A stretch of DNA of 64,000 nt, from contig NC_042999.1 in the NCBI RefSeq assembly GCF_006345805.1, positions 89,962,001-90,026,000 on the forward strand, written 5' to 3'. Below are positions 19,311 through 56,150 of the stretch, in pieces. The position numbers were made by a program, and so were the translations under genes. Source of the DNA: Octopus sinensis. Taxonomy: Eukaryota. The notes beneath the pieces were generated by a model. That model did not search any database and was not told the origin of the DNA. It saw nothing but the letters and a program-made list of their open reading frames with translations. Every line of letters begins with the position of its first letter. The stretch's first letter is position 1.

Positions 19311-20439
19311 ACAATTATATAAACTGGATTGCAACAAACAACAGGGCTACACCTGGTTTTAAATGATCAAGCTGAAATAGTACACGAAAGATCCAATGAC
19401 TGCAGCTCAGAATCAGTGTCTCATAACAAAAAAAAATGATCAGAAATTCATTTTTGAAGCGCAATATCTAGATGAAGAACTTAAAGGTTTGATGCGATTA
19501 TCGTCCTCTATAATATTGTCGCCCTAACACTGACCGTGTCAGAATATATCTCAAGACATCACAATGCTGCTACCTACACTCGTTGGAAAAGTTAAAACGA
19601 TATAACGGCTGCTGCAAAAAAAATGCACAAGTATGTCCCAGACTGTGGAAATGGTATGATGTTTGGTAGTATAAAAATAAATAATGACAGTGAATTTAGA
19701 ATGAAAGGATTGGACGTTATTATAAAAGACAAGAGCTACATCACTTGTACACTAAGTGATGTAGTTTGTCTAAATGACAAGAAGCTGCTAAAGGACTTTG
19801 AAAAAATCCTTCAGACATAAAAACATAAAGTGGAAATAGCGCGAATGGACACAAGAACAGGTGCAGTAAAATAGAGTACGTGTGCCTTTCACAGGATAAA
19901 AATAGTGTAATTGTGATACTGATATTAATAATGATTTCTTTGTTAACCACAAGAACAGCACAAATACATACTAATAACAGGAGTTGCTTTTATCCACTTC
20001 ACACCAGTGTTTTAAATGCTATCCGTGTTATTGACATTTAGTTTTTTTTATAAACAGGCAACATTAATAACCTTGCATTGTTGTGAAATTTTCAAGTTTG
20101 CCCAATTTTAAAATTAATTATAAACCTGAAGCAAATAACTTTTCAAATTAATGTTGACATTTTAGCTCATTTCAGAAGATATTTCTAAATTACATTAGCG
20201 TTCTTGTCACGTTTAAATTTACTCGGGTATTTAAAAAAAAGTTTCTACTCATTCTCATATGTTATATTTCTCCTCTAACTTCTTCTGACAAGATATTCGG
20301 AAAGTTGAGACGATTGACATTTCTTATTTGCAATATCTCTTTCATATACTGGCATTAAAAAAAAAACTCTCTCTTTTGACGATCCCCTAACTACACTTTG
20401 AATGGGCTTGGAAGGTAGTTAACGGACATTATTACCAAG

Positions 20440-21620
20440 AATATGCCGCAATCTATTTTATTGTAAAAATTCTGTTCCATCCTCATATTCTGCTGTACTG
20501 TAAAGAATCCGTCACACTCTGACTCGAAACAGTTCATAACACTTTAACAAATAAATTGTCTGTGACATTCTACTGTACTGAAACAGGTCTATCACATTCA
20601 ATACACTAACTCCATGTTTTATTGTACGGTATCTGTTGCACTGAAATGTGCAGCCCATCAAACACTGCTGTTAAAAGTGTCAGTTAAAATGCAACTGTTA
20701 TAATATCTGTTGCTCATTACTGTAAAAACCGTCACATTCCATTCGACGCAGTTCGTCATTCTGCATTGTAAATAACCCGATCATGAAGTGTCTATATCGG
20801 CTGTTACACTTGGAATCCGTCACACTAAACTGTACAGTGCTTGTTACACTGTACAGTAAAGTGTTCGTTACACTCAACTACACGGTTGCGTCACACAGTA
20901 TAACCTGTCGCACTGGCCATGTCAATATATTTCATAGCATGAAAATGCTGCTACAGGATCCAAATACTGTTCAGTTACACTGTCTTATACATGTATGTCA
21001 CACTATAATACATTGCGTACTGTACTGCATAATTTGTCACACATTTAACACACTATATTGTGCAAGATCTTATATATCAACTGTACTCTTATGTGTATAA
21101 ACAGCAACTTTCTAAATCATATAATCCCTTCATTGAGCAAATTCCAAACAGTTTACACGATGCCTGTCAGACATTATCATAAAATAGCTGCTTTATTCTT
21201 TTGAACGGGGTTTGTCACAATGTATCTTACAATACAGGATCTCCTCTAATCTTCGATTACAGTCATAGTCCATTACTCAAAATCTGTCACCTCTGTTGGA
21301 TAGGGTTCGCTATAAACCACTGTACTAAGAATTGTCTACGAACTGATGTTGGTTCAACAAACTCTGTACAGTAGAATTTGATTGTCCATCGAAGTATGTG
21401 ATAGATTCTGAGCAATGAAGTACGACGGACGCCGTACAGGAGCGTGTGGCCAATATTGTACTGTAGACTATGAGACACGCTTCATCACTTCGTTCTGTCA
21501 GAATACTGTGCAGCCTCAATACACGTTACAGTACGGGACTATTCATCAAATCGTCTGTCACATACTACAGTAGGGAATATACTTTACAGTACAGAATCTG
21601 AGACCGATATAATTAGGACT
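20440..21620. repeat. Degenerate minisatellite (ctgtcacactgtactgtac-like units)
   Basis: Recurring 'gtcacact', 'tgtactgta', 'cagtacag' words. Confidence 0.45.
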
Positions 21621-22099
21621 AGGCTTACAGAGAATAAGTCCTGGGGTCGATTTGTTCGACTAAAGGCGGTGCTCCAGCATGGCCGCGGGCAAATGACTGA
21701 AACAAATAAAAGAATAAAATAATAAAATATATTCAGCCTTCCTTAAATATATTATTAAATGTTCGCGAGTTTTGTTCTTGATTATAACACATGCACCCAG
21801 CCTAATCCATATTACGCCTACATTAACGTACCACGCGACAATGAATACAAGAACCACAAGACAACTCTTTCTCGCGTTGCCCTATTTCTTATCTTCTACA
21901 AAAAGGTGTTTTTACTATATACCAACCCCTACTGATATAAGATATTGATTCTTTTGCTGAGACATAAGATTAAACATTTATTGAGAGGGATTACAGTGAT
22001 TATATATATTTACATGTTTCACTCACTGAACTTGCAGCCATGCTGGGGCCACCGTATTGAAGTGTTTAGTCGGAAAAATCGACCACAGAACTTATATAT

Positions 22100-22308
22100 A
22101 ATGTGACCGCGTGTGTACCGTTGGCGATTTTTTTCCCTCTGTCTTCCCTTCTCTGGATCTTTCCTTATCCTGTTTCCGACGAAGAGCTCCGCTCGAAACG
22201 TTAAGCCCTCCTTCTTTCCTTCTTTCCTGAGCGTCCAATAATACTATATTTGTTCCACGTCCTCGCGTTGTTGTGTGTTTTTTTGTGCTTTCTTGTTTGG
22301 ATTAACTT
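22100..22308 (+). mobile_element. ~200-bp non-autonomous element in a (TA)n context, with HHR-like motif
   Basis: Near-identical copy at 45012-45210. Contains gttt-CCGACGA-agagctccgctc-GAAA-cg-TT-aa(g/a)c. Confidence 0.7.
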
Positions 22309-22434
22309 TATATATATATATATATGTATATGTATGTATATATATATATGTATGTATGTGTGTATGTGTATATGTAGGTGTATGTGTGTATGTATATGTT
22401 TATATATATATGTGTGTATATATGTATGTATATG

Positions 22435-22471
<37 letters not shown>

Positions 22472-22642
22472 AAGTTTATTATATGTATGTATCCGTCTAT
22501 ATAATAGGTAACTGCACGTACATATACTTAATATTTATTTTTTGAGTATGCATGTATGAATAACTGCGCGTATATATATTTACTATTTACTTATTTTTTG
22601 AGTATGCATGTTAGTATGAATATGTATATGTATATATATGTA

Positions 22643-22691
<49 letters not shown>

Positions 22692-22835
22692 GTACATGTA
22701 TGTATTTGTATGTAGGTGTACATGTATGTGTGTGTATTTATATTTATTGGTGTATATGTATAGACTAGCCTTCTAAGAGTGTAGACATGAATCTGTAGGT
22801 ACGCGTATATATATATATATATATGTATATATATG

Positions 22836-22877
<42 letters not shown>

Positions 22878-23807
22878 TGTACATGTATGTATTTGTATGT
22901 AGGTGTACATGTATGTGTGTGTATTTATATTTATTGGTGTATATGTATAGACTAGCCTTCTAAGAGTGTAGACATGAATCTGTAGGTACGCGTACGTATG
23001 TGTATATACGTGAATGTATGTAGATGTATGTATGTATGAATATAACGCGTGCGTGCGTGTATGCGTATGAGTGTACGAATGAGTGAGTGTACGTGCTAAA
23101 GAGTGTGCGTGAGTGAATGAGTAATTGTTTTCCAGTAGACGGATAAATGGTCTGGCTGTCATAGCCAAGATGTTTGTGACCAAGCGGCCAAAGATAACAA
23201 AAGTAATAAACGAAGATAATAAAATTAAAATTAGGGAATGGGTCTGTATTTGTATATGTATATATATATGTGTGTATGTGTAGGTATGCATGGGTACACA
23301 TATGTATATATATGTGTATATATATATATATATATGTGTATGTATATATATATATGTATATGTATGTGTATGTATGTATATATATGTGTATGTATGTGTA
23401 TGTGTGGGTGTATATATATGTGTGTATGTGTATATATGTGTATATAGGGACTAGTGTGCTGTGTGTGCATGTGTGTGTATGGATTTGTGTGTGTATGCGT
23501 GTATGTGAGTATGTGTGTGTATGTGTATATATATATTTTTCTGTGTGTATATGTATGTGTGGTCGTGTGTGTATATATACATGTGTGTATACGTGTATGC
23601 AAGTGAGTGTGTGTATGTATACATATATATGTGTATGTGTAGATATGTATATGTATGTGTGAGTGTATATATGTGTGTATGTGTAGAGGTATAAGTGAGA
23701 ATCTCCTTATTTACCTAAAACTCTATTCCCCCCTTTTTATATATATATATATATTATATATATATATATATATTTTATTTTATTTTTTTTTATATTTTTT
23801 TATTTTT

Positions 23808-23830
<23 letters not shown>
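22308..23830. repeat. Compound TA/TG/TATG low-complexity tract with a ~187-bp tandem duplication
   Basis: 22690-22805 is repeated at 22877-22992. Confidence 0.85.
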
Positions 23831-23849
<19 letters not shown>

Positions 23850-23997
23850 TTATTCTCCTATCTAATTTAACACTGACCCCTTGACCACTCCCCCAAGTAT
23901 GATTTTTTGCGCTATGCCTACCCCCAAAAAAGTCCCCCACCACCACACCCTTTAAACCTGCCTAAATGTATAAATGCCAATACAATTCTTGTTAACT

Positions 23998-24048
23998 AGC
24001 TTCCTGAAGATTTCTCTTGAATGAAACAGTTCTAGTCCTGTAGAAGCT
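23998..24048 (+). ncRNA. Type I hammerhead ribozyme
   Basis: agcttc-CTGAAGA-tttc tctt gaat-GAAA-cag ttctagtc ctg-TA-gaagct; 6-bp stem I and 3-bp stem III. Confidence 0.65.
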
Positions 24049-24130
24049 CCTTCTATATAATAAATTAATTTTACTCTGCTATGTATTGAGTACCTTATTT
24101 ACTGTGGTTAACCCCGAATCAACCGGGACC

Positions 24131-24177
<47 letters not shown>

Positions 24178-25170
24178 CCAAGAAAAAAGCAACAAGAATG
24201 GATCGGTAGATTAGTACAATTGTTTCATACTTCATACTATAAACATTTTATTTCAAGCTGCAAATATTACAGCAAATATAATGTCAAGTATTCATCAGCT
24301 AAATCACATATAGGTTTTCCAAGTATCTTGTAGAGTGTAAATATCCTTATGAAGTTATAGGAGTGAGTTCCATGAATCTGAAGTAAGATTCCAAGCATAC
24401 TATATATGTTTTCCAACAATACAAAGTTTAAAAATTGATTATTAACATCCCAGAGAAGATAAATCTACTCATAAAAATGTGGGTATAAGTTCCAAGAGGC
24501 ATGAGGAAAGATGTTGGTCATACCACGGTTAAGTCCGCATCTAACTGTTGCAGACAAAATTCTATAGTAGCAAGAAATACAGCGAGGTAGGTTTAGCTAA
24601 AGCAAAAGACATCAGAAGAAAAAAAATGGGGATGTAAGAAGGAATAAAGATACCACAGACAAAGGTCAGTCTATATCTGTGGTGACAGAAAATCTAGGTC
24701 AGTGTAGAAGGAATCTTAAATTCATAAAAGAACTGTAAGTTTGACCACCACTAGCTTTGAACTGAGAAACTCATAGAATTAATGGTGGGATTGAGAATAC
24801 AGGAAGAACAAAGGAAAGCACTAAAGGGGTCATAGGTCATCGATAGAGGGAGATATAGTAAGAAATTTAAGGTTAACACTAGAATAGAAGGTATTTTATT
24901 TATTATTGCTTCTATTTTAACTTATGTTTATATATGGTAAGAAGGAATTTAGGTCAACATCCAGAGGTCAAATCAATTCAATAGCAAATGATAGGGGAAT
25001 CTTACTTATTCAAAAATCATAGTGAAAATCACATGTATCATTAAGGGAAAAATATTGAGATTCTAAAGCATAGAAAAAATAAAAAATCTACTAAATAACC
25101 GTATAGAGTTGTGTCAGTCTTGCATTCACTCAAAAATCAAAACTCTGAAATATTTCAAATAGAAATTTGC
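24178..25170 (-). mobile_element. PLE-like terminal repeat, diverged relative of 4085-4830
   Basis: Shares 'aagcaacaagaatggat..ttagtacaat.gtttcatac' and 'attctaaagcatagaaaa..aataacc' with the 4.1-kb element. Confidence 0.65.
24211..24302 (-). ncRNA. Type I hammerhead ribozyme, long stem II
   Basis: Reverse complement: ttag-CTGATGA-atactt...aagtat-GAAA-C aatt G-TA-ctaa; palindromic stem III. Confidence 0.75.
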
Positions 25171-25547
25171 AAGTTCTCCTACTGTTGTTCTTTCTAACTT
25201 GCATCTTTTAACATAAATAAATAGTATTTATCGGCGTGTGACAATCATAGTTGTCGATGAGAAGTCGTTTCCCTTCACAAATACATATACTTTTTCCAGT
25301 ATCGATTGACACTGATATTGAAAAAGTGAAATCAAACAATGATAAATCTCAGAGCGAGTTATAAACAGTAGCAGAAACACATCGTGACATATATTTGCCA
25401 TTTGAATGTGGCTAACCCCTAAGGGTGGATGCTACTGTAGTTTGTAGCCCCAGGAGGACACCTCCTCCAGCTGGCTATAGACACACTTTCTGTGCCCTAT
25501 CAGTATTTGCGAAGGGAAGCAATCCTTCCCGTCTTCAACTTATGATA

Positions 25548-25592
25548 CACACGGACTCGAGTTTCAGGGTATTGACCCGTCATCGGCGTGTG
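25548..25592 (-). ncRNA. Minimal type I hammerhead (U4C variant)
   Basis: Reverse complement: cacacg-CCGATGA-cgggt caat accct-GAAA-C tcga G-TC-cgtgtg. Confidence 0.8.
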
Positions 25593-25835
25593 ACAATCAT
25601 AGTTGTCGATGAGAAGTCGTTTCCCTTCACAAATACATATACTTTTTCCAGTATCGATTGACACTGATATTGAAAAGTTAAATATATGTCACGATGTGTT
25701 GCTGCTACTGTTTATAACTCGCTCTGAGATTTATCATTGTTTGATTTCACTTTTTCAATATCAGTGTCAATCGATACTGGAAAAAGTATATGTATTTGTG
25801 AAGGGAAACGACTTCTCATCGACCACTATGATTGT

Positions 25836-25880
25836 CACACGCCGATGACGGGTCAATACTCTGAAACTCGAGTCCGTGTG
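25836..25880 (+). ncRNA. Minimal type I hammerhead (U4C variant)
   Basis: cacacg-CCGATGA-cgggt caat actct-GAAA-C tcga G-TC-cgtgtg. Confidence 0.8.
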
Positions 25881-26187
25881 TATCATAAGTTGAAGACGGG
25901 AAGGATGGCTTCCCTTCGCAAATACTGATAGGGCACAGAAAGTGTGTCTATAGCCAGCTGGAGGAGGTGTCCTCCTGGGGCTACAAACTACAGTAGCATC
26001 CACCCTTAGGGGTTAGCCACATTCAAATGGCAAATATACGTCACGATGTGTTGCTGCTACTGTTTATAACTCGCTCTGAGATTTATCACTGTTTGATTTC
26101 ACTTTTTCAATATCAGTGTCAATCGATACTGGAAAAAGTATATGTATTTGTGAAGGGAAACGACTTCTCATCGACCATTATGATTGT

Positions 26188-26232
26188 CACACGCCGATGA
26201 CGGGTCAATACTCTGAAACTCGAGTCCGTGTG
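26188..26232 (+). ncRNA. Minimal type I hammerhead (U4C variant)
   Basis: Identical to 25836-25880, 352 bp downstream. Confidence 0.8.
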
Positions 26233-26424
26233 TATCATAAGTTGAAGACGGGAAGGATGGCTTCCCTTCGCAAATACTGATAGGGCACAGAAAGTGTGTC
26301 TATAGCCAGCTGGAGGAGGTGTCCTCCTGGGGCTACAAACTACAGTACCATCCACCCTTAGGGGTTAGCCATATTCAAATGGCAAATATACGTCACGATA
26401 TATATATATATATATATATATATT

Positions 26425-28641
26425 AAGACTAGCAGAAGCATCAACCAGTTTCAATTCTGAAGATGAATCACTAGTCAAGAACAAAAGTGAACACATCCCA
26501 CACAGAGGAAGAAATAAAGATCTTGATGAATTCTGTAACCACATTGAGAACTTTCCCTACCATACTATGCATAAACAGAAAGTTAACTCAAATTTTAACA
26601 CTACACAATGGAAGGAACTGATAGAACTTCAAAATGATGAGGATATAACAATTAAAGAAGCAGACAAGGGAAATGCAGTTGTAATAATGGATACATCATA
26701 CTATAGAAATCTTGTAATTTCCTTGCTTGATGACGACCTACATTATGAAAAAATTACCAACTACATCCCACAAAAAATAATGAAAACTCTATCTTCACTA
26801 ATTAAAACCCATGAAAAGGAACTAACAACCAAAGAGATTGACTTTCTAACAAACTTTAAATGCAAACCTAGCCTTTTCTATGGTCTGCCAAAAATCCATA
26901 AAAGCCAAATTATAAATGAAACCATTAAAAAATCACCAAAGACATACATACACACACCTAACCCGGGGGACCTAAAACTACGACCCATTGTAGCTGGCCC
27001 AACCTGTGAAACACACAGACTAAGTCTATTTATGGACATCCTCCTGAAACCTTTCCTTAAACATATCGATAGCCATATCAGAGATGACTTAGATATGTTA
27101 AACCACTTCCCAAAAAAAGCCAAGGAAGAAACAATCCTGGTTTCATTTGATGTAGTTAACTTGTATACCAGTATACCTCATAATTATGGACTAGAGGCAA
27201 TACAGTTCTGGCTGGACCAATTTCCGGAAGAAATACCAAAAAGGATCAGTAAAGAATTCATTACTAAATCAATTGAATTCATCCTACATAATAACCACTT
27301 CATGTTTGACAATACATTTTACCGTCAAAAATCCGGAATTGCTATGGGTACAAGGGCAGCACCAGTCATTGCGAACCTAACAATGGGCTACATGGAAATA
27401 ATCATTTACCAGGAATCTTTATCAATCTTTGGAACCCCCCTTTCTCAATACATAAAAGAGAATTGGAAACGATTCTTAGACGATTGTTTCATACTCTGGA
27501 ATGAAAACACAGATAAACTCCTAAAATTTAAAAACCTATTGAACAGCATAAACCCAAATATACAGTTCACAATGGAATACAACCAAAAGGAGCTCCCGTT
27601 CTTGGATATACTAATTTAAAAAATTAACCTTAAAATAGAAACAGACATTTTTTACAAAGCCACAGATGCCAAACAATACCTTCTTTTTAATTCATGCCAC
27701 CCAAGACACACTAAAACAAACATCCCCTTCAACCTTGCAAGAAGGATATGCACAATAGTGTCAGAACAAAATACCAGGAACTTTAGACTGCAAGAACTCA
27801 AAAACACCCTATTGACAGACATTACCCAACTCAACTCATAGAGGATGGGATCAGACGTGCAACAGAAATCAACATAGAAACTTTAAGAAAAGTTCAACAC
27901 AACAACACACCTTCCCCGAAAATACTACCTTACATATCTACATACAACCCCAGAAACAAAGAAGCCTTCACCATCATCACCCAGAATTTACCAATATTTC
28001 ATAAGGACCCCAAATTAAAGGAAATTCTTAACATACACCAAATCATTAAAAGCTACAAACAACCTAAATCACTTAAAAAGATTCTCACAAAGGCAAAATT
28101 GTTTTCTGAAATTACGGATGCAAAAGTAAAAAAATGTGGTAGATCGAACTGTGCAACATGTCCAAACCTGCTAGAAGGATCAGAATTCCTCTTTAAAGAG
28201 GGACAGAAATTCAAGATCAAATCTAACTTTACTTGTGCCTCTGAAAACATAATTTATGTCATAAAATGCTCGGGCTGCCACCAAGACTACGTGGGATCCA
28301 CGGGACTATCACTCAGACGTAGATGCACACTGCATCGACAACAGATTGCATTCCCAGAATACAGAATGATACCTTTTAGTGAGCACATTGAAAAATGCGC
28401 AAAGCAACTACTACCACAATTTTTAATCTTTCCATTTTACCAATGTGCTATCGGATCATCAACACAAATTAGACTAAACAAGGAAACATTCTTCATTGAA
28501 AAGTACAAGCCCAGACTTAACCATGCCAACATACTGATACAGAGAAATTCACACCAAGGGAAAGGAAAAAAATTTTTTTTAATTTTAAGCGATTATCTCC
28601 CTTACACCGGAAGAAATCACTCATTATCTCCCCTTATTTAG
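26425..28641 (+). mobile_element. Penelope-like element: RT plus GIY-YIG endonuclease, disrupted
   Basis: IKEADKGNAVVIMD, FYGLPKIHK, LRPIV, SFDVVNLYTSIP, GIAMGT, RFLDD, LPFLD; stop at 27617 and a frameshift near 27830; then CGRSNCATC..IYVIKCSGCHQDYVGST..RCTLH (Cys-rich linker plus GIY-YIG, Neptune-like). Confidence 0.92.
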
Positions 28642-29197
28642 AACTCTTTTAAACATAAACATAAAGATAACTCTGTTCAAGATAAACATAACGTCGTAAG
28701 AAATTTGAAAAGCTAAACGCGAAACCGATCTTTCTTCAAAACTATGTCATTGTAGGGAAAAAAAAAAAAATTTTAATATTCTTCAGACATATTGACGCAA
28801 ATATATATATTTTTTAACCTTTAAGCCTTCTGTAGTTTTTTCACTTTTTACTATTTTCTATATATTCAACCACGTGCTTTCACAAACCAACTTTCTTATC
28901 TATATATATATATATATATAATATATATATGGAATTTAAAAGTTATTGCCATTAATAGAGTCACCATTGGTGTCGCATCTATATTACATTTAACAGTAAA
29001 AGGGACTCGTCAAACTCAAATGGCTGAAGGCATAAAGCTTCTCTACAACTGGAAGAAGAAATACGTAACTGTCAGTTGGTTTTTAAACAAAAAATAATCG
29101 TCCGTACTGCGAGTGGAATGGAGTTATCTCCCTTGCACCGGCTCCGGCCATGGTGATATTCGAAGGAGTGGTGGCGGGAATATTCAACGAATGGAGC

Positions 29198-29646
29198 ATA
29201 TTTATCATAAGGGCACACGAGGCACCTACCTGCTAGAACGTGGAGTTAAAACCTTCAACTTAACCACCAATGACACTGAAAAATTTTACAGACAACAGTA
29301 GACGGGCGATAGAGTAAACAAATTCAACATACCATCAAAGCTTAATGCTATATAGTTTGGTATTTGGATATACTTGTATCATGATTTCGAGTTTTGGCGA
29401 ACTCGATAAGACTTGCTGACGAGAGTTAAAGAATTTTGCCAAAACTCGAAATCATGATATAAGTATATCCAAATACCAAAACTATAGCATTAAGCTGTGT
29501 TGGTATGGTGATTTTTTTTTACTCGTTTTTTTACTCGTTTACTGTTGTTGTCCGTGAAATTTTTCAGTGTCATTAGTGATTAAGTTGAAGGTTTTAACTG
29601 CACTTTCTAGCAGGTAGGTGCCTCGTGTGTCCTTATGATAAATATG
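29198..29646. repeat. ~450-bp imperfect fold-back repeat with central HHR
   Basis: 29198-29400 is an imperfect reverse complement of ~29435-29646. Confidence 0.8.
29411..29464 (+). ncRNA. Type I hammerhead ribozyme
   Basis: acttg-CTGACGA-gagtt...aactc-GAAA-t catg a-TA-taagt; canonical core, palindromic stem III. Confidence 0.7.
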
Positions 29647-31249
29647 AATTTTAATTCTATAGCTATCTAGCGCTATTTAATGCCTGCAGCCACTTATATT
29701 ATTATTGTTATTATTATCAATTCTCTATATTTTCCACAGATGGTAATAACAATAATAATATCCATATGGATATTCGATTTTGCATATTTACTCCTTACTA
29801 TATATGTATAATAGTTGTATACTGTCAATTTAACGTGACAGTAAGGGATTACACCACCGCTGTTTAGCCCTAGGTAGCATCGAACGCTTCCTGTCGGCTT
29901 CGACACATTTACTGTGTCCTTATATATATTTATGAAGGGGAGACAAATACCCCCAACAGCTAGGCCTGCATCTAGAGACACACATATTTCAGGGTCTTTG
30001 CCCATCATCATATATATGTATCATATGTGATTAAGAATCCCACCTTGCAACTATGTGGTTTGGGGTTCAGTTCCACTGAACCATGAGCAAGTATATTCTC
30101 TTATAACCCCGGCCAGACCAATGCATTATGAGTTAATTTGTAGACGAAAACTAATTGTATACCCGACAAGCTTCCACACAGTTTCCGTCTACCAAGGTGC
30201 TGTGCAGTGGAACTGATCCCTAAACCACGGAGTTGCAAAGTAAGCTTCTTAACCACATAAAAAATATAGAGCTGTATAGAATCGTCCTCGGCATCTTACT
30301 AGTTCTTATTTAATCGAAAAAAGGCTGGTGAAAGCAGAATGAAACGAAAGTGACTAAATACGGCGTAGAAATGTTCTGCTCCCCTACCGATCTGGAATTA
30401 ATCGCGTAGGAAGAGATTGATAATTATTATTACTAATAATGTAGTACAAACGAATCGAAATACTCTCATTTGGCAGAACAATGACTATAATAATAATAAT
30501 GGTTGCTAACATTGGCACATTATCCCAATTATTGTAGGGGAAATGTTTCATTCAATTACATCGACTCTAATACATGAACAGTACATAAATTATTGACCTC
30601 AGAAATACCGGAGTTAAATTTGATGTTGACGAGGAAGGGGCTTATGAGAACGTAATTAAATAACAATAGACTAGTTAGTACTCGGTGTGGAACCTTCCAA
30701 GAAAAGAGTGAATAAAGGACCTCTGGGGAGGGTCTTTCGGAGACTGCTAAGACACCGGGTCACCATTTCTTCAGGAACAAGATAATCAGCTTATCCTGCT
30801 TTTTCTCCGCCTAACATAGAGTACGTTGCTTGGAAACAAAAGTATTTGATAAACGATCATAAGTTACTCTGTACGCTTGTAGTAGACATCAACAAAATCA
30901 TGACCTCCAAGACACATAAACTGTCGTTTCTTGTAGGTTTTACTGCTTGATATATGCCTCGTTCGGTGATCCCTTTTCTTGACAGTGTTTGCTTCGAGAA
31001 AATCTGGATCTTGAGATAACAGCTATCATCATAGATTCAAATGGTCGGCCGATGGTCCCGAAAGAGAACAATAATAAAAATGGTGTCTTCCGACTCTTGG
31101 CCTGATCTGACTCGGCTTGAGTCGAAAGATCAGGCTTCCCGACCCAAAACGAAATGTCTAGTATGATCCATTGAATAGACTTAGTGAAAGACTAGAATAG
31201 TACCTTAGATTCATATTAAAATTGGTTGAAAGTAAAGAAAAGAAGAAAA

Positions 31250-31990
31250 CTTTGAAGTAGGTTAACAGATGTGTGCAAATCTGGAAAGGTGGAAGTAGTC
31301 CCATGATGTCAATATGCACATGTTGGAATTATGCGTCAGGTGTAGCAAAAGTATCAAATGGTGACTTGACATGGTGTATTTTAGCTTTTTGACATGCGAT
31401 ACAACTACTGGGCCATTTCAAGATGTCCTCGTTGATACCAGCCCGTACAAAACAGGACGACATAAGCTACTGTGTGGATCGGATACCAAGATGCGATAAA
31501 CAGTGCAAAGCGGGAAAAAAATACCTGACATCAATGCTTTTGTGGTACATGCGGCGAGCTGGCAGAAACGTTAGCACGCCGGGCGAAATGCGTAGCCGTA
31601 TTTCGTCTGCCGTTGGGTTCTGAGTTCAAATTCCGCCAAGGCCGACTTGGCCTTTCATCCTTTCGGGGTCGATAAATTAAGTACCAGTTACGCACTGGGG
31701 TTGATGTAATCGACTTAGTCCGTTTGTCCTTGTTTGTCCTCTCTGTGTTTAGCCCCTTGTGGGTAGTAAAGAAATAGGTACATGCGGGCGTTCATAACAG
31801 ATACAATCGTTACTCTAAAGAGAAGGAATCGAAAACTCTCAAGCATGAATTGAAAATGCTTGAGAGTTAAATATGCTGCCAATAATTCCTGTCCGAAAGT
31901 GTTGTATTTAGATTGCAGTCGCTAACTGCTATACAACACATCTGACTGCAGACCAGTAGGATGCGTGTCGAATCATGTCGGACTCATTAG
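31250..31990 (-). pseudogene. Decayed Gypsy integrase region interrupted by a SINE
   Basis: Minus-strand LSHPGIRSTQ..CIACQK..FQHVHIDIMGLLP..THLLT. Confidence 0.65.
31553..31776 (+). mobile_element. tRNA-derived SINE, full length
   Basis: A-box-like 'tggcagaaacgttag', B-box 'gagttcaaattcc'; TSD ggtacatgcgg (31544-31554 / 31777-31787). Confidence 0.85.
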
Positions 31991-32593
31991 ATATAACATG
32001 TAAGATGTAACAAAATGGAGATATATATTTCTTTACTACACACTAGGGGCTGTAACGTGAAAGGATCTATCATCGAAACACTGGCAGGGTGTCGAGATCC
32101 TTTCTAGTCACATACAAAAATTCTTGTAGAAAACAAACAGACGAAACTCAGGTTAAAGGTGAACAGACAACTTGGTTTATTGATTCATGGTTGTACGTTG
32201 TCTGATGGGGGAATAGACAGCCTCTGATATACTGCTGGTGTTGGTCGTTGAGGTTGGTTGAAGTTGGTTGAAGTTGGTGTGTGGCTGTCAGAGCCAGGAA
32301 AACCGTGACCGATCGCAGTGCTGTCTAGAGCCGAAGAGAGAGATTTGAGGTTCGCGGGCTCGAGAGATGTTTTCCCGCACATGCGCATGGGGAAGACTTC
32401 CGGTGGCCACCCGGAAGTAGTCCCATTCTGCGCATGCGCGCCGAACCCTACACTGTAGCATCACTACAGGGCTCCCCTCCGAGTGCGAAGTACGGCAACC
32501 AGAATATTGTGGTGGTGCTGCAGAAAACAGAAGGCTTGCCGATCCCCCAGAAGACTTGGTACATACTATTATACAATAAGAAACATTTTAAAG

Positions 32594-35500
32594 TTAAATG
32601 TAAATTGTTTTTGAAAGTTTCTTGGGCCAATGCACTGTTCTGCCCGATTTTGTAACATACGGTGTGCTCGGGGCACCCGTTGACGGCGAGGGTGGTGTTG
32701 TAGGAGCCGGTGAAATTGTTTGTGCAGGTGAAGGCGTTTGTGCAGGTGAAGGCGTTTGTGCAGGTGAAGGCGTTTGTGCAGGTGAAAGTGTTAAAGGTGC
32801 ATAGGTGGGTGTGTCAAGGTTGTCATCAAAAGATGAAGACGTCTCAAAATGTGCCTTTTTTAAACGGTCCACGGAAACGGTCTCCGAACGACCATTTATC
32901 TCAATCGTGAAAACCTTTGGTGTGCGAGAAAGCACACGAAAAGGTCCTTTATAGGGAGAAACAAGTGGGCCCTTCACAGAATCGTCCCGAACAAAAACAT
33001 GCGACCAGGTGTTCATATCCGGTGGAAGATGGGACGGTGGAGATTGCTTTCTGGGAAGCATGGGCGGAAGGTTTGAAAAATATTCCCGCAGTCTGGTGAC
33101 ATAGGTCGCCGGATCATGGGGCGGGGAAGTGTCTGGCACCAACATCGTACCGGGCAATGCCAGTGTGGTACCATACAGCAGCTCTGCAGCAGAAAACCCC
33201 AGGTCTGCCTTGACAGCAGTCCGACAGCCGAGAAGCACAATGGGCAGAATTCGATCCAGGACTGTGGGTCCGAAGAGGCACGAAGAGCGGCCTTGAGCTG
33301 TCTATGGAACCGCTCAACCAATCCATTAGACGCTGGATGGTAGCTTGTGGTGTGGATATGGTGCATACCCAAAATTCGCGACAATTCGCGAAATAGCGAG
33401 GCCTCAAACTGTCGTCCACGATCAGTTGTCAATCGGGACGGGACTCCGAAGCGAGAAATCCAGTTTGAAACGAAAGCTCGCGCAACAGTCTCAGCAGAAA
33501 TGTCTGCTATCGGAATGGCTTCTGGCCAGCGGGAGAAACGATCGACACAAGTTAATAGATAAGAGAACCCGCGACTCACAGGCCATGGTCCAACCAGATC
33601 GATGTGGACATGGCGAAAACGGGCCTCCGTGGGGGAAAATTGTCCAAGCGGGGCACGAACGTGCCGTTGAATCTTGGATCGTTGACACTTGGAGCAGGTG
33701 CGTGTCCAACAAGTAATTGTGCGACGCATATTCGGCCAGAAAAACCGAGCAGTGATTAGTTTGAGGGTGGCAGCGATGCCAGGATGTGATAAGGAGTGCA
33801 GTGCTTCAAACACTGAGCGTTGATGGGTCTCAGGCACCAGTGGCCTGGGAGATCCAGTTGAAGTGTCACAAAGAATGGTGCCTTCGGCTGACGGAAGCGG
33901 AAGGTAGGAAAACTGGCAACAGGAGAACTTGGGAGAAGTTAAATCTAACGACGCCAAAGGTGGCTGCTCCTGCGATATGGCAGCTAAGTCGATAGTAGCA
34001 GGAGACGAAAGGGCGCAAACTGGAAGGCGAGAGAGAGCGTCAGCAGGAACGTTCTCTTTTCCAGGTATGTGTCGAATGTTGCTAGTAAATTGAGAGATAA
34101 AATCCAGGTGCCGAAAAGCACGGGGTGAGAGTTTGTCCGTTTTTGAAAACAGGGCAAACGTAAGGGGCTTGTGATCCGTATAGATCACAAAATCTCGCCC
34201 TTCAAGTTGATGCTGGAAATGACGAACCGATAGATAGATCGCTAGGAGCTCACGATCAAAGGTGCTGTATCGTCGTTCAGCTGGTTGCAGTTGACGGGAA
34301 AAGAAGGCTAGAGGTCGAACATGGTCATCCACTGTGTGTTGTAACACAGCGCCAATCGCAGTGTCCGATGCGTCCACAGTCAAAGAGAGAGAAGCACCAG
34401 GAACTGGATGTGCAAGCAAAGAAACAGAAGCCAGCTCCTTCTTAATGGACTCAAAGGCTGTCACTGCCTCAACAGAGAGGGTGACTTGACTGTCCTTTCT
34501 AGGAGAGTCCTTTAACAGCCTGGTGAGAGGTAGCAGCTTATCTGCACAACCGGGAATGAAGCGTCGGTAGAAATTGACCATCCCTAGATAATGCCTGAGC
34601 TGGCGCAAGGAAGTGGGGGGTGCGATGCGTTGAATGGCATCGACTTTTGACGAGAGGGGGCTGATTCCAGTCGAATCAATATGATGCCCTAGAAAATCTA
34701 GGGAAGAGCGTCCGAAAACACACTTGTCGGGGTTTATGCGTATGCTATACGCGCGAAGACGCTGGAAGAGTTGAGAAAGGTGCCGGAGATGATTTTCTCG
34801 TGTGTCGCTCGCAATGAGTATGTCATCGACATAGGCAAACACAAAATCAAGACCGCGGACAACCTCATCAATGAAACGCTGGAAGGTGCTAGTAGCATTC
34901 CGCAAACCGAAACTCATGTACAAAAACTCAAAACACCCAAACGGGGTAGTGATTGCAGTTTTTGGAACGTCGGCTGGGTTGACCGGTATTTGGTGGTAAG
35001 CGCGTATCAGATCGACCTTCGAAAAAATGGTACAACCATGGAGATTTGCTGTAAAGTCCCGGAGATTTCTAATCGGATAGCGATCGGCTATTGTGACGGC
35101 ATTGAGGCGTCGATAGTCTCCAACCGGGCGAAAATCAGACTCGCCCTTTCGCGCCAAATGAAGGGGAGATGCCCATGGGCTGGTGGAGGGGCGTATAAGG
35201 CCAAGTTGAAGCATGTGCTCAAACTCGGCTCTGGCCGTTTTTAGTCGGTCTGGCGCTAGGCGCCGGGGGCGTGAGAATACAGGTGGCCCATTGGTGGTGA
35301 TGAAATGGAGGGTCGAGTGGGTAGGATTTTCCGGTTTAAAGGCAATGTCCACTAGCTCCGGAAATGAAACCAAAAGAGAGTGAAATGGGTCTCCAGAGGT
35401 GGCAACAAAGAATGTCGGGCTAAGGACCGCAGTGGTGGAACTCCCAGTCGGTGTAGAGAGCGACGTCGTGCTATCAAGAAGCCTCCGACGCCTGACATCC

Positions 35501-35840
35501 ACCAATAGGTTAAACCTATCCAGGAAATCAGCGCCGAGAATAGGATGTGGGATATCAGCGATGACGAAAACCCATCGAAAATCTCGACGAAGGTTGAGGT
35601 TGAGGCGCAGCGAAACCTGACCGTAAGTGGTTATGGGAGACGAGTCAATAGCATGCAAGACAATCGAAGAGCGCTTGGGCTTGTCTGCAGCCAGACGAAG
35701 GGGCCAGATGCTGCAACAGGAGCCGGTGTCTACCATGAAGAATGTCTTCGACACCAGATCTTTTACATAGAATGCACGATGTTTGGGAAACGAGATGGAA
35801 GAAGGTGACGTGCTCACCTCCTCCGGATTTAGTTTTCCGA
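32594..35840 (-). CDS. pol: Gypsy pol (PR-RT-RNaseH-IN), 1-nt frameshift near 33245
   Basis: VDTGS protease, YVDD RT, DASD/ELLAI/TDHKPL RNase H, HSLSH..CSKC, HIDLVGP/TDRGRQF/GLVERFH integrase, YKGPF module. Confidence 0.93.
32712..32787. repeat. 18-bp tandem repeat x4 encoding (TPSPAQ)n in the integrase tail
   Basis: 'tttgtgcaggtgaaggcg' repeated. Confidence 0.9.
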
Positions 35841-36565
35841 GGGCTTGAAAGTGCACGGCTGGGTACACCGATCTGCCTTTTCGGCATATCTCGAATGGTA
35901 CCAGCACCAGCCGGAACGAGAAACAGAGTCACTCCGACTGCGGGAAATAGAGCTACTGCGACTACGAGATTGGCGTCCGATCGCACGGCACAGATCATCG
36001 ATCCTCCGCGTAAGCGCGTCGATGTTCTCGGCCAGTTTATCGTTCGTCGGAGGGGTCGGGGGGGCTCTGTGCATGCGTACAGGCCCCGCGAGGGAGATGG
36101 GCGCGAAAACTCCAACACTTTGTCGGCCATCGTGGCGATCTGGTCCACAGACACAGCATCCAGTGCCGTGGCCAACATTGTCTGCACGTGGGCAGGCAGC
36201 CTTGAGAAAAATATCTTGCGTAAGAGCGGCGCGTCAGCGGCGTTGCCGCTTAGCTCTCTTAGATGGCGCAGAAATTGGGATGGAGTTCTGTCCCCTAACT
36301 GCTCGTCGGCCATCAGTTCATTAAATTGACATTCCTCTGAGCGCGTGTTGCGACGGAGGATCTCCGCCTTTACTGACGCATATGTGGCGTCAGGATGGGG
36401 ACTCACAATGAGATCCCTGACCGATGTTGCGAGCCGGGAGGGCAAACTTGAAAACAGTAGATGTAACTGCTGTTGTGGCGGAATGGTATGCGCGGCAAAG
36501 TGTGACTCCACCTGTGCAAACCACAGCCCCGCATCCCCCGTAAATGAAGGCAAACCTGAAGCCAT
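35829..36565 (-). CDS. gag: Gypsy gag (1-nt frameshift in a C-run near 36060)
   Basis: [38 protein letters not shown]; continues in the next frame to [17 protein letters not shown]. Confidence 0.85.
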
Positions 36566-41321: not shown

Positions 41322-43903
41322 ATGTTTCTTTATTAGCCACACAGGGCTGAACACAGGGGGGACAAATTACAAAGTAGAGCTTTTCTTTTGGGGGAGAAAA
41401 AAAAGGCAGTGGGGGTAGGTTTTCGATCAAAACGGATCGTTAAAAAAAGCATCAATAGGAATCGTGTATCACAGAAATGTCATGATGTAAAGTGTAAAGG
41501 GGGAAACAGATAAGGTTTATCCGTGGAAAGAAAAGCCTACGAAAAGACCACGGTAACCTCGGTCAATAATGTCACATGTTAACACATTTATTTGCAAGAA
41601 AGTAACTCTCTGCTTTAAATTTTTCCGGTTTCATAGGATTATGCTCAGGTGGTTTCGTCATTCATACGTACCATCCTTGCTACATTCATTCATCTTTTTT
41701 TTTTTTTTTTGAAACATTCGCTCGACAAAACTTGATTCTCTACTCTTACTTTCCTTTTCAAGTGATACTTGAAGAAGTTGATAAGAGATTGACCAAATAG
41801 GAAAGTGTTTGTCTCTAATCCTTTCAGATGCGTCCACCAGATACATTTTTTCGTCATAGCCACAAGTATGATGAAAATAGCTCTTCCTTCCCGTTTGAAG
41901 GAAGGAGGCGTGACGATATTGACGATAGACTCGGCTGATAAACCGACTCGTCCCACACGTGACAACAGTCGTTCGACATAAGCCCACAGGTCGGAAAAGG
42001 TTGGACACTTTGACTACATCTCGGGCAGGTCGGCCCTGTGTTTCTCGAGCCGTGTCGTAGAGCTTATCCCGAACGGGTAGCGCTTCTCGGTAGCACTGCC
42101 AGGCCAAGGATCTCTGGAAGCTGTCCTTAGGTCCCGGCCCGAGAGTCGTCTTGAACAGGCGGGTCAGGTATTCCTCGTCGATGCCCAGGTTCGCCCCGAG
42201 ATCGTCGTCGTACCTCCCATCCACTAATCCCTTATAGAATGCTTTGGTTGTGTTGAAGTCGCTCAAGGTCAACCCGGGACGGTATAGCTGCTTGGGTGCC
42301 ATTCGCCCTCCCTCGGCCTCTTTTTGATCCACGACTGCAGTTCGGTCATGGAGACGAGCTGCGGGAAAGCGTACCTCACAAACGGTGACCACACCTGTTC
42401 ACTGTCGTCTACGTAGAGCCGGAGATGTCGCAGTCTCAGCGCGTGTCTGCGCATCATCAATCACGGCATGCCCAGCCCTCCTTTTAACGGGTGTTAATAG
42501 CAAATGGATCGCCTGACCATCGGGACGCATTTTCCCACAAGAAACGGGAGACAATGCGTTCTAGTTTGGTGATGGTAGGGTCAGGACAAGGTACGACGGT
42601 CAGGCAGTAGTAGATGACGGATGCGACGTACGTGTTCACCACCTCCGCCCGACCTTTTAGAAACAGTTTCCTCTCGGCCCATTGCCGGGCAAGAGTGACC
42701 ACCCTACTCGTTATCTCGTTCCAGTTTTTCTCCATTTGAAGGTCTGGACCAAACCAGACGCCGAGTAACTCGACTGGACCGTCGGTCCAGTGTCCCACGA
42801 CGGAGGCGCCGGTGGACGGCATGGGCTTGCTTCTCCAGGTGCAGAGCCGCAAGCCCACTGGCTTTTCCCGGTTGATTTTCGCTCCTGTTACCGCTTCGTA
42901 GTCTTTCAGTGTCTCGCCGACCAGTTCGATGTCCTCATGGCTAGACACTATCACGGTGATGTCGTCCGCGTGTGCAAACACGCTAGTCCCGCATCCCAAT
43001 TCTCGCGGGATGCCCCTCAGAGTCGCCAGCTTCTGCAGTAGTGACTCGAGAGTTAATACGTATAGAAGCGACGAGAGGGGGCATCCCTGACGGACCGAAC
43101 GTGCAATGTCGAAAGGTCTCGATAGATGTCCATTTACGCGAATTACCGAACGGATACCTCTGTACAAAGCAGCTATCCAGCCTCGGAAGACGGGGCCGAA
43201 ACCAGCCGCTCTGAGGACAGCCTCCAAGTATCGATGGTCTACTCTATCGAAAGCTTTCGATTGATCCAAATTGATCAGGGCCCCACCCATGCCAGGTTCC
43301 TTAACTACCCTGTCTATGATGTAGCGCATCAGATGGAGGTTGTCATGGATGCTCCGGCCCGGCACGGCTCACGTTTGTACCTTGTCGACCAGTTTCTCGA
43401 TGACAAGCGCCAAGCTCTTGGCTAACACCTTGTCCAAAATTTTCAAGTCTGCTTTAAGCAGTGTGATGGGCCTAAAGTTATCTATTACGTCCCACTTTTT
43501 TTGGATCTTTCTTCAGCAGTGTTACGGCTCGTCGGCTCACAAAACCGGGGATGCTCCCGTTTTGCTGCCAGTTGCAGTACACCGCTGCCAAGACGTCTCT
43601 AAACAAGTCTGGCATACAACTGTAAAGCTCGTAGGGTAGACCATTCAAGGCCGGCGATTTGTCCCTCGAGCATTCTGCCATCGCGTCTCACACTTCCGCC
43701 GCTGTGATGGCACCTTCGCAGCGCCCTGCTTCTCTTGTCGAGAGTCGTGGCAGGCTGTGTAGATAGACACTGAAGTCCACCCTGCGTTCTCGCCCGCCAC
43801 TCGTCCCGAACAGCCGGGCAAAATGCTGTTGAAAGGCCTCACACATTTTACTTGGCTCGAGTAATTCGCGCCCCTGTTCATCTACCAGAGACCGAATGGT
43901 GGC
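41322..43903 (-). mobile_element. 5'-truncated Tx1/L1-clade LINE, frameshifted
   Basis: KSPALNGLPYELY, GRSIHDNL, LDQSKAFDRVDH, VRQGCPLS, AHADD, INREK, GLGMP; ~330-bp 3' UTR with AATAAA. Confidence 0.9.
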
Positions 43904-54284: not shown

Positions 54285-54983
54285 ACTAAAAGTGCATGTG
54301 AAGCCGGAGCGTATATTACGGGTGTGCTAAGTGTACTCTGCACACCCATCAAAAATGGCAAATTCATTTTAACTATTAACCTATTAACCTTAATCATAAA
54401 TCTAAATAGAAAACTTTTGTTATACTCCCTTCTTGAAATTTGGTGGCAACACACCCAATATATAACAACCACAATAAACCATATGTGAAGTGACGGAGGA
54501 TTGAAACTGGGACACATAATCAACTCACTAACAATTAATTGCTATACTATATTTTATGCCTTAAATGTATAAATAACATCCTATCTATCTGCTTGAGTCG
54601 TTTGTATCTACTTACAGCTGACACTAATCTGTAAAAGAGCTGATAAGTTTTATCAACTGTCAGATACTATACTTATTTTTAACATGGAGAGCATCACGTA
54701 TGGAATAGTTTTTATTTTTATACTTAGATAATTTATAAATGATATTTTTACTTATTAAGATTAAAAAAATCAATATTTCTGTATTTCACATAAATGTTTA
54801 TTTACAATTATCATGTAATCAGTAAAAATACTGGTAACAATTGCTTTATATAGGCATGTGGTGCATCATGCAGGATACTATATATTCAGTTCCTTTTTTT
54901 TTTTTTTTGTCACATGGTCATAGTTTCTGTGTTCAGCGCAAGTTCTGTTTGTCGCAACTCGGATTCTTTCACAGTTGTTGACA

Positions 54984-56150
54984 ATGTATGTGAAAATAAT
55001 AACCATTCTAATCTTTGTGACTGTTGTCTCAGGCTTCGTTTTAAAGCCGTTTGATGGCAAATGTGTTACGGATGCTTATCCACCAAAATCTTCCACTACT
55101 GTCCCGAACTTGACTATCAACTTAGATCTACCTGCTCACGACCGATGGAAAGAAGTAGCTATAAAGTATAAAGATTCTATGAAAAGTCTCATCGGAGATC
55201 TCAAGAAACTGGTGGGAAGCGTACCCGTTGTGGGAGACTTAATCATCAAAATTATTGATAATGAATTTGAGAAAATTATCCCCACACTTCCCGCTCCTTA
55301 CGCTGATGAACTGTTGGGTATGGCCGATTACTCTGGTATCAACCGCGGCGAGATACTCTTATATAACATCTTCTACGAAGTATTTACGGTGTGCACATCG
55401 ATCATTGCTGAAGACAAGAATGGTGAGTTGTTTCATGCTCGAAATCTTGACTTCGGTTTATTTATGGGATGGGACCTTAAAAAAAATGACTGGGCCATTA
55501 CAGAGGCCCTTCGGCCCATGATTATGAACTTGGATTTTCAGAAAAACAACAAAACTGTTTTTAAATCTGCAAGCTTTGCTGGTTACATCGGAGTCCTGAG
55601 CGGTGTAAAACCAGGTGTCATTTCACTCACTTTAAACGAAAGATTCCAACTTAAAGGTGGCTTTATTGGAATAATACAGTGGCTGTTGGGTCAAAGAACA
55701 GCTAAATGGTCAAGTTTTTTAACGAGGGACACCCTTACATCTGCAACTTCCTATCAAATGGCTAAAACTGAGCTGTCCAAGACGGAACTACTAGCACCCG
55801 TATATTTCATCTTAGGTGGAACAAAGTCTAAAGAAGGATGTGTTATCACAAGATCCCTAAATAAGACTGATAATATATGGGAAATGTCTGCAGCGGGTGG
55901 CTGGTACATACTGGAGACAAATTACGATCACTGGTTGCCTCCACTGTTTATCGATGATCGCCGAACCCCAGCTACGTTGTGTATGAATGAACTCACTCAA
56001 AATAACCTTACAATGGCTGGACTTTACAACGTACTCAGTACAAAACCAGTACTCAACAAACTTACAACATACACTGCATTAATGCAGGCAAAAAGTGGAT
56101 CTTTAGAAACACACATCCAAAAGTGTCCTGATCCTTGCTGGCCTTGGTAA
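54984..56150 (+). CDS. ASAH1: Acid ceramidase (N-acylsphingosine amidohydrolase), single coding exon, 388 aa
   Basis: Signal peptide, INLDLPAHDRW, YNIFYEVFTV/CTSII (Ntn nucleophile Cys), HARNLDFG, LETNYDHW, DDRRTPA, LNKLTTYT, terminal CPDPCWPW; AATAAA at 56354. Confidence 0.95.
   Translation: MYVKIITILIFVTVVSGFVLKPFDGKCVTDAYPPKSSTTVPNLTINLDLPAHDRWKEVAIKYKDSMKSLIGDLKKLVGSVPVVGDLIIKIIDNEFEKIIPTLPAPYADELLGMADYSGINRGEILLYNIFYEVFTVCTSIIAEDKNGELFHARNLDFGLFMGWDLKKNDWAITEALRPMIMNLDFQKNNKTVFKSASFAGYIGVLSGVKPGVISLTLNERFQLKGGFIGIIQWLLGQRTAKWSSFLTRDTLTSATSYQMAKTELSKTELLAPVYFILGGTKSKEGCVITRSLNKTDNIWEMSAAGGWYILETNYDHWLPPLFIDDRRTPATLCMNELTQNNLTMAGLYNVLSTKPVLNKLTTYTALMQAKSGSLETHIQKCPDPCWPW

Follow-up and report, generated by a model that had tools for sequence, protein, structure and literature searches.

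The tandem and inverted array at 25230-26399 of the window, the whole 64,000-nucleotide stretch of Octopus sinensis DNA analysed here, is one insertion of a dispersed 352-nt family and not a lone locus. The reading preferred here, at a probability of roughly 0.65, is that the family is a dispersed non-LTR retrozyme whose transcripts likely self-cleave and likely circularise, and that the RT/endonuclease of a Neptune-type PLE likely copies the circles into (TA)n. A more specific version is proposed tentatively, at somewhat less than an even chance. Here, a ribozyme-made circle sharing no sequence with its helper would be copied by rolling-circle target-primed RT of a Neptune-type PLE, with two internal start points that can be mapped.

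Tandem Repeats Finder returned a period of 352, with 2.0 copies and 98% matches at 25680-26399, in agreement with the array described in an earlier note on this DNA. The segment 25230-25676 is 98% complementary to 25752-26198 across 447 nt, and the orientation flip, previously put at about 25680, is located at 25676/25677 with a short overlap. Unit positions are counted from the base after the predicted cut (25875 = 1). The 3' end of the direct arm, before the (AT)n tract, falls at unit position 173, which is the most frequent of the family's fixed 3' ends. The outer end of the inverted arm lies inside the hammerhead core, at unit position 324, and lacks (TA)n, which is atypical compared with most copies. 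The copies of the direct arm agree on three variants against the inverted arm, and one variant is present in both copies of each arm, which suggests that two template molecules may have contributed. The longest ATG-started frame of the unit has at most 57 codons, and no tRNA gene was found in the 352-nt monomer.

Table 1. Features of the array and of the adjoining PLE (window positions).
Feature	Position	Strand	Basis
Inverted arm, 1.27 units	25230..25676	-	inverted-repeat and sequence comparison
Hammerhead of inverted arm, complete, predicted cut at 25554	25548..25592	-	motif scan (hit at -25586)
Direct arm, 2.05 units	25677..26399	+	tandem-repeat and sequence comparison
Hammerhead 1 of direct arm, predicted cut after 25874	25836..25880	+	motif scan (hit at +25842)
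Predicted 352-nt monomer, cut site to cut site	25875..26226	+	motif positions, folding
Hammerhead 2 of direct arm, predicted cut after 26226	26188..26232	+	motif scan (hit at +26194)
(AT)n tract, target microsatellite common to array and PLE	26400..26423	.	sequence
Family A PLE (context, outside the element)	26424..28900	+	RT, CX4CxxC linker, GIY-YIG-type endonuclease

When the window was scanned for the motif on both strands, three complete type I hammerheads were identified in the array, together with a leftmost fourth that is cut off inside its core. Stem I comprises 6 bp, stem II 4 bp, and stem III 2 bp (A-U, C-G) closing a UCGA loop. The core CCGAUGA and the position of this loop within an 8-nt palindrome bear out the U4C core and palindromic stem III noted before, and the scan places the predicted cuts of the two + strand hammerheads at the expected sites (~25874 and ~26226). 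In all three complete hammerheads, stem II has an unpaired C.U at its base, which the earlier note does not mention. The label 'minimal HHR' was wrong. In the available text of PMC4209133, a 6/4/1-2-bp hammerhead is termed canonical metazoan type I, which is the type represented by the 6/4/2-bp shape found here, while the 'minimal' PLE hammerhead has a long stem II and a short stem I. According to the accessible part of PMC3088659, hammerheads with U4C are less active in vitro but still sustain a viroid in vivo, and tolerance of U.U at the base of stem II is described there as well. The motif is not a product of chance, because 223 sites in the genome match a 31-nt hammerhead pattern exactly, against 0 for its reversed control. 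When 20000-34000 was searched against Rfam, hammerhead families were absent from the results at E<=1, and what did appear were miRNA matches driven by hairpins and falling short of their cut-offs. Two further matches of the loose hammerhead scan in the 64 kb lie at 24004 (doubtful) and at 29416, the latter in another element.

The 352-nt monomer is predicted to fold with a z-score of -5.62, none of 100 shuffles being as stable. For the direct-arm transcript, the double hammerhead was calculated at 4.1 kcal/mol above the minimum, one single hammerhead at 8.7 and two singles at 17.4, in a folding model that leaves out core and tertiary contacts. The double fold is thus predicted to be cheaper than the single folds, which favours the earlier idea that the two hammerheads pair through their palindromes. 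A transcript entering from the left is predicted to form a 447-bp hairpin, with a stem I probability of 0.0 in both + strand ribozymes, and only starts between 25677 and 25836 would avoid it. Since such a transcript would bury both ribozymes, the locus is unlikely to be a source of circles unless transcription starts internally. Of the earlier proposal of a circle-producing retrozyme, the element type is supported; the role of this very locus as circle maker is weakened by the predicted hairpin. It is more likely a product than a source. Contigs from runs presumed to be RNA (four, then three) cover the unit, with depths that allow no ranking. In contigs of three of four such runs, the sequence joins back on itself over 352 nt, a joint that genomic tandems give identically.

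The unit is widespread: an 18-mer from it has 1,502 exact matches in the 2.7-Gb genome, against 0 for the reversed control. Two sets of loci were compared. The first follows genome order and contains 67 loci with 92 arms, left from 70 after removal of 3 overlapping ones; the second is score-biased, with 76 loci and 119 arms picked by score or pattern. Between 0.3 and 2 units are present at most loci, which lie on many contigs in unrelated surroundings and have ragged 5' ends. In the genome-order set, the 3' ends of 73 of the 92 arms fall at unit positions 160-176 or 204-226, peaking at 173 and at 212-219; the two fixed ends, at ~173 and ~214-219, are 41-46 nt apart. A TA-type tract abuts 47 of these 73 arms, and 22 of the 67 loci consist of two inverted arms with their 3' ends facing outward. 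The same two 3'-end classes include 101/119 arms of the score-biased set, which have 89 different 5' ends.

These marks are those of PLE insertion. Among the PLE features given in the portion of PMC8557442 at hand are truncation at the 5' end, partial tandems, an inverted copy alongside and a 30-40-nt tail, and the preference for (TA)n is linked there to a CX2-5CxxC motif of PLEs. The inversion in the array is PLE-like, as had been held before. In the available part of PMC11167929, the PLE tail is the stretch delimited by two internal start sites of the RT, and insertion involves extension of both DNA strands. Two fixed 3' ends, 5' truncation and an inverted neighbouring copy together correspond, as judged from sequence, to the signature of a PLE-mobilised element. 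The PLE next to the array carries a CX4CxxC motif and has the same two-ended pattern. The unit family and many PLE families are present in one genome.

Across 44 aligned copies, the named hammerhead stems are paired in 96% of cells, and they are kept in all three subfamilies, which are about 20% apart. Compensatory change is limited to the first pair of stem II (G-C in 23 copies versus A-U in 13, at subfamily level), and this covariation amounts to about one inherited event. RNAalifold recovered stems I and II, not stem III, with little covariation. The old subfamily (24 rows) has U4, and the young rows have C4 (11) or U4 (9), U4C marking a subfamily. In a rough tree of 204 columns, the nine young U4 rows group as a clade nested among the C4 copies (96/86). 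The idea that U4C defines the youngest subfamily was rejected, as the nested U4 group is equally young or younger. A ribozyme-less subfamily, suggested by a loose-end consensus of contigs, was also dropped, being found neither in the loci examined nor in the genome.

The state of the template can be narrowed down from the position of the arms. In the genome-order set, 56 of the 92 arms cross the cleavage site by at least 10 nt and none starts at the cut. The 5' ends are not piled up there either (16 in the surrounding 31 nt, 14 and 14 in the adjacent bins). As arms cross the cut and none begins at it, the template is not a cut linear monomer; it is either a circle or an uncut multimer, for which the DNA looks alike. 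Crossing of the cut is no proof of a circle, because uncut RNA can serve as template and PLEs without ribozymes form tandems too. The accessible part of PMC11167929 reports that PLE ribozyme mutants still insert, the ribozyme being dispensable in vitro and uncut RNA the main template, and ribozyme-less PLEs yield partial tandems, inversions and tails in the part of PMC8557442 consulted. A non-autonomous PLE-type element could accordingly spread from uncut tandem transcripts, with the hammerhead as a passenger or slow processing signal and no need for a circle. This explanation is unlikely, yet credible enough to be kept in mind, and it fits all insertion marks equally well. The U4C lineage was amplified, and the longest array seen (L119:4014-6641, contig C2), with 7.2 units that differ by 0-2 substitutions and a short added inverted arm, carries a G5A core in every unit. 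This array points to local amplification or an uncut template. Against the passenger role stand the stems persisting over subfamilies, the agreement of the ribozyme with the canonical animal type of circle-making retrozymes in the available text of PMC7229834, and the nesting of young U4 copies among C4 copies, as if a canonical core had been regained. The last point is tempered by the position of C4 in a CpG, so that reversion to U4 needs no selection and CpG reversion alone could suffice.

The PLE next to the array is 5'-truncated and broken, with a stop at 27617-27619 and a frameshift further on, and it has its own 3' end and its own (TA)n. Within the window, its ORF lies beyond the (AT)n tract and no unit is found at the 3' end of the ORF, both as previously stated. 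In 19 other sampled copies of this family A, the 3' end is never occupied by the unit; a single copy is preceded, past a TA tract, by an old unit. The 3' ends of 18/19 fall at 28899/28900, and those of one copy and six inverted arms at 28857-28865. All are at TA or simple-repeat tracts, and the two ends are 35 nt apart. Some family A copies (L037, L047, L049, L046) end in (TATC)n or (TC)n echoing the last bases before (TA)n, as if the RT had slipped and made a microsatellite at priming.

The unit might instead be the ordinary pLTR or 3' end of an autonomous PLE whose full-length copies lie outside the sample, and this is quite improbable. Such an origin would agree with the tail, the inversion and the (TA)n preference, all of them PLE marks, and a rare parent might lie beyond the best 40-150 candidates that the genome searches scored. 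As to linkage of unit and PLE elsewhere in the genome, a check proposed in the earlier note, 9/136 unit loci have a PLE protein match within 1.5 kb, counted after removal of recognised duplicates and excluding one locus reached from the PLE side. In the loci read, the PLE lies past a TA tract, in varied orientation, or at a distance, with one exception, and neighbourhood past TA tracts is attributed to shared targeting. The exception is a direct fusion inside an ORF (L115:786-1737, contig C5), in which a family B RT-linker fragment adjoins an old-subfamily unit with TA on both outer sides; this single case is possibly a template switch or deletion. Opposed to a pLTR origin are the own 3' ends of family A and of family B (24 other copies), as well as a full-length family A copy with a 78-nt pLTR of its own, which repeats the copy's 3' end in front of it. 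At 30 of 147 GIY-YIG loci examined, representing 11 sequence clusters, the unit does not occur as a terminal repeat, and the ribozyme is of the canonical 6/4/2-bp shape and not a minimal hammerhead. Long copies wrap into unit sequence. Of 30 loci that include positions 221-328, 25 were kept after removal of 5 rows from the window or duplicated; 21/25 run on upstream into more unit, 4/25 end no more than 5 nt on, where they meet an inversion, a TA tract or unique DNA, and no common non-unit upstream sequence or ORF was found among the 25. A shared 5' extension was considered and discarded, since 34 alike flank pairs near the junction, on either side, were by eye TA tracts or other interspersed repeats. 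No parent PLE with the unit contiguous to the 3' end of an RT and GIY-YIG ORF was found in the loci sampled, and no likeness between the unit and the PLE families compared was detected. The earlier suspicion of a separate non-autonomous element, and not the pLTR of the neighbour, is thus supported by the PLE copies' own 3' ends and by unit wrapping into unit. The idea of a satellite-like repeat that spread through duplication of DNA, without passing through RNA, is largely refuted for the family and hardly credible: recombination does not yield fixed 3' ends and ragged 5' ends in unrelated flanks on many contigs. It draws on the homogeneity of the 7.2-unit array and on bioRxiv 10.64898/2026.07.22.740005, which in its available part proposes local amplification of PLE termini.

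In the retrozyme reading, tandem transcripts of the 352-nt repeat would likely self-cleave to monomers, which likely close to circles. A PLE protein would nick (TA)n, and its RT would start at two internal RNA sites, producing the PLE tail, about 170-220 nt from the ribozyme cut. By circling round the template, the RT could copy more than one unit, and priming from both strands could give two outward-facing arms. Against this reading count the U4C core with its lowered activity in vitro, the unpaired base of stem II, the Xenopus retrozyme dimers that did not cleave, and the lack of any detected likeness to the PLE families compared by which a helper could recognise the unit. By eye, the palindrome CACGTG is present in the 3'-terminal regions of three PLE families (28866-28900; L123-L130; L164), and at the inner 3' end of the unit a small hairpin with a CACG loop is predicted. 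This likeness may be a lead for RT recognition.

By sequence criteria, the octopus family belongs with the metazoan non-LTR retrozymes, its cleavage and circles being predictions. The accessible text of PMC7229834 (Cervera and de la Peña 2020) describes circles from mussel (350-390 nt) and axolotl (330/350 nt) retrozymes and names PLEs as likely helpers. Shared features are a non-coding tandem unit within ~150-450 nt, without LTR or ORF, a GC content under 50%, strong predicted self-pairing, co-existing PLEs, and one type I hammerhead per unit, with stems of 6, 4 and 2 bp and a palindromic tetraloop on stem III, complete in two consecutive units here. The C.U mismatch recalls axolotl HHR_Amex2, which has U.U at the base of stem II. 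The U4C core in part of the octopus family is unlike these retrozymes, and so are its mostly short, scattered insertions, which show a PLE tail and inversion and target (TA)n, as far as the published descriptions of retrozymes were available. In the available part of the preprint by Li, Clavereau and Pollet (2026; bioRxiv 10.64898/2026.07.22.740005), vertebrate retrozymes are linked to pLTRs, 24/57 Xenopus families match TEs (PLEs 21/22), and Xenopus retrozyme dimers showed cleavage in 1/9 cases and none in 8/9. The octopus unit differs from the Xenopus families in that no pLTR homology was found.

Compared with the Neptune/Nematis-type PLEs in the available passages of PMC8557442, the octopus family has the same partial tandems, adjacent inverted 5'-truncated copy and (TA)n preference, and likewise two 3' ends separated by the length of a tail (41-46 nt here versus 30-40 published). 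The unit is unlike them in having neither an ORF nor sequence common to the PLE families compared, and its canonical ribozyme contrasts with pLTR min-HHRs, which have a long stem II and short stem I in the part of PMC4209133 consulted. Non-autonomous Chlamys PLEs such as MRC1, described in the same passages of PMC8557442, are similarly non-coding, with pLTR-like partial tandems and head-to-tail copies. They generally have a common 3' end with an autonomous partner and no canonical hammerhead, the opposite of the octopus unit. In the literature reached, mostly non-subscription, neither a cephalopod retrozyme nor tail-based evidence for retrozyme mobilisation was found; a squid paper only counts 235 hammerheads.

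Other elements accompany the array. By eye, the 3' region of the neighbouring PLE seems to hold a variant minimal hammerhead at 28698-28736 (+), seen in the window and in L083, with a U3-A8-type core, a 2-bp stem II and a tiny palindromic stem III; family B has a similar motif. A 450-nt inverted element at 29197-29646, with a canonical-core hammerhead (29416-29459) and a palindromic stem III, probably represents a third insertion of PLE type next to this TA region. The window further contains an LTR-retrotransposon pol frame (RT, RNase H, integrase) at 33013-35928 (-), another RT fragment at 42484-43368 (-), and, at 54924-56150 (+), a frame of 408 codons without interruption that belongs to the acid amidase (NAAA/choloylglycine hydrolase) family. 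Elsewhere in the genome, several GIY-YIG matches lie in open frames of ~780 codons, and some PLE families therefore have intact ORFs.

The retrozyme class and the idea of PLE helpers were already known, in the accessible parts of PMC7229834 and the 2026 preprint, from co-occurrence and pLTR likeness. The octopus family adds evidence of another kind, the unusually clear insertion marks themselves, namely the tail, the inversion, the (TA)n target and the read-through of the cut site. With this family it becomes testable whether retrozyme circles serve as templates for the RT of a PLE, and whether selection acts on the activity of the ribozyme. If true, the circle-copying reading would offer a ready in vitro template, with natural U4, C4 and G5A variants to probe the need for cleavage, and would represent the first nucleotide-level footprint of PLE-driven retrozyme mobilisation.
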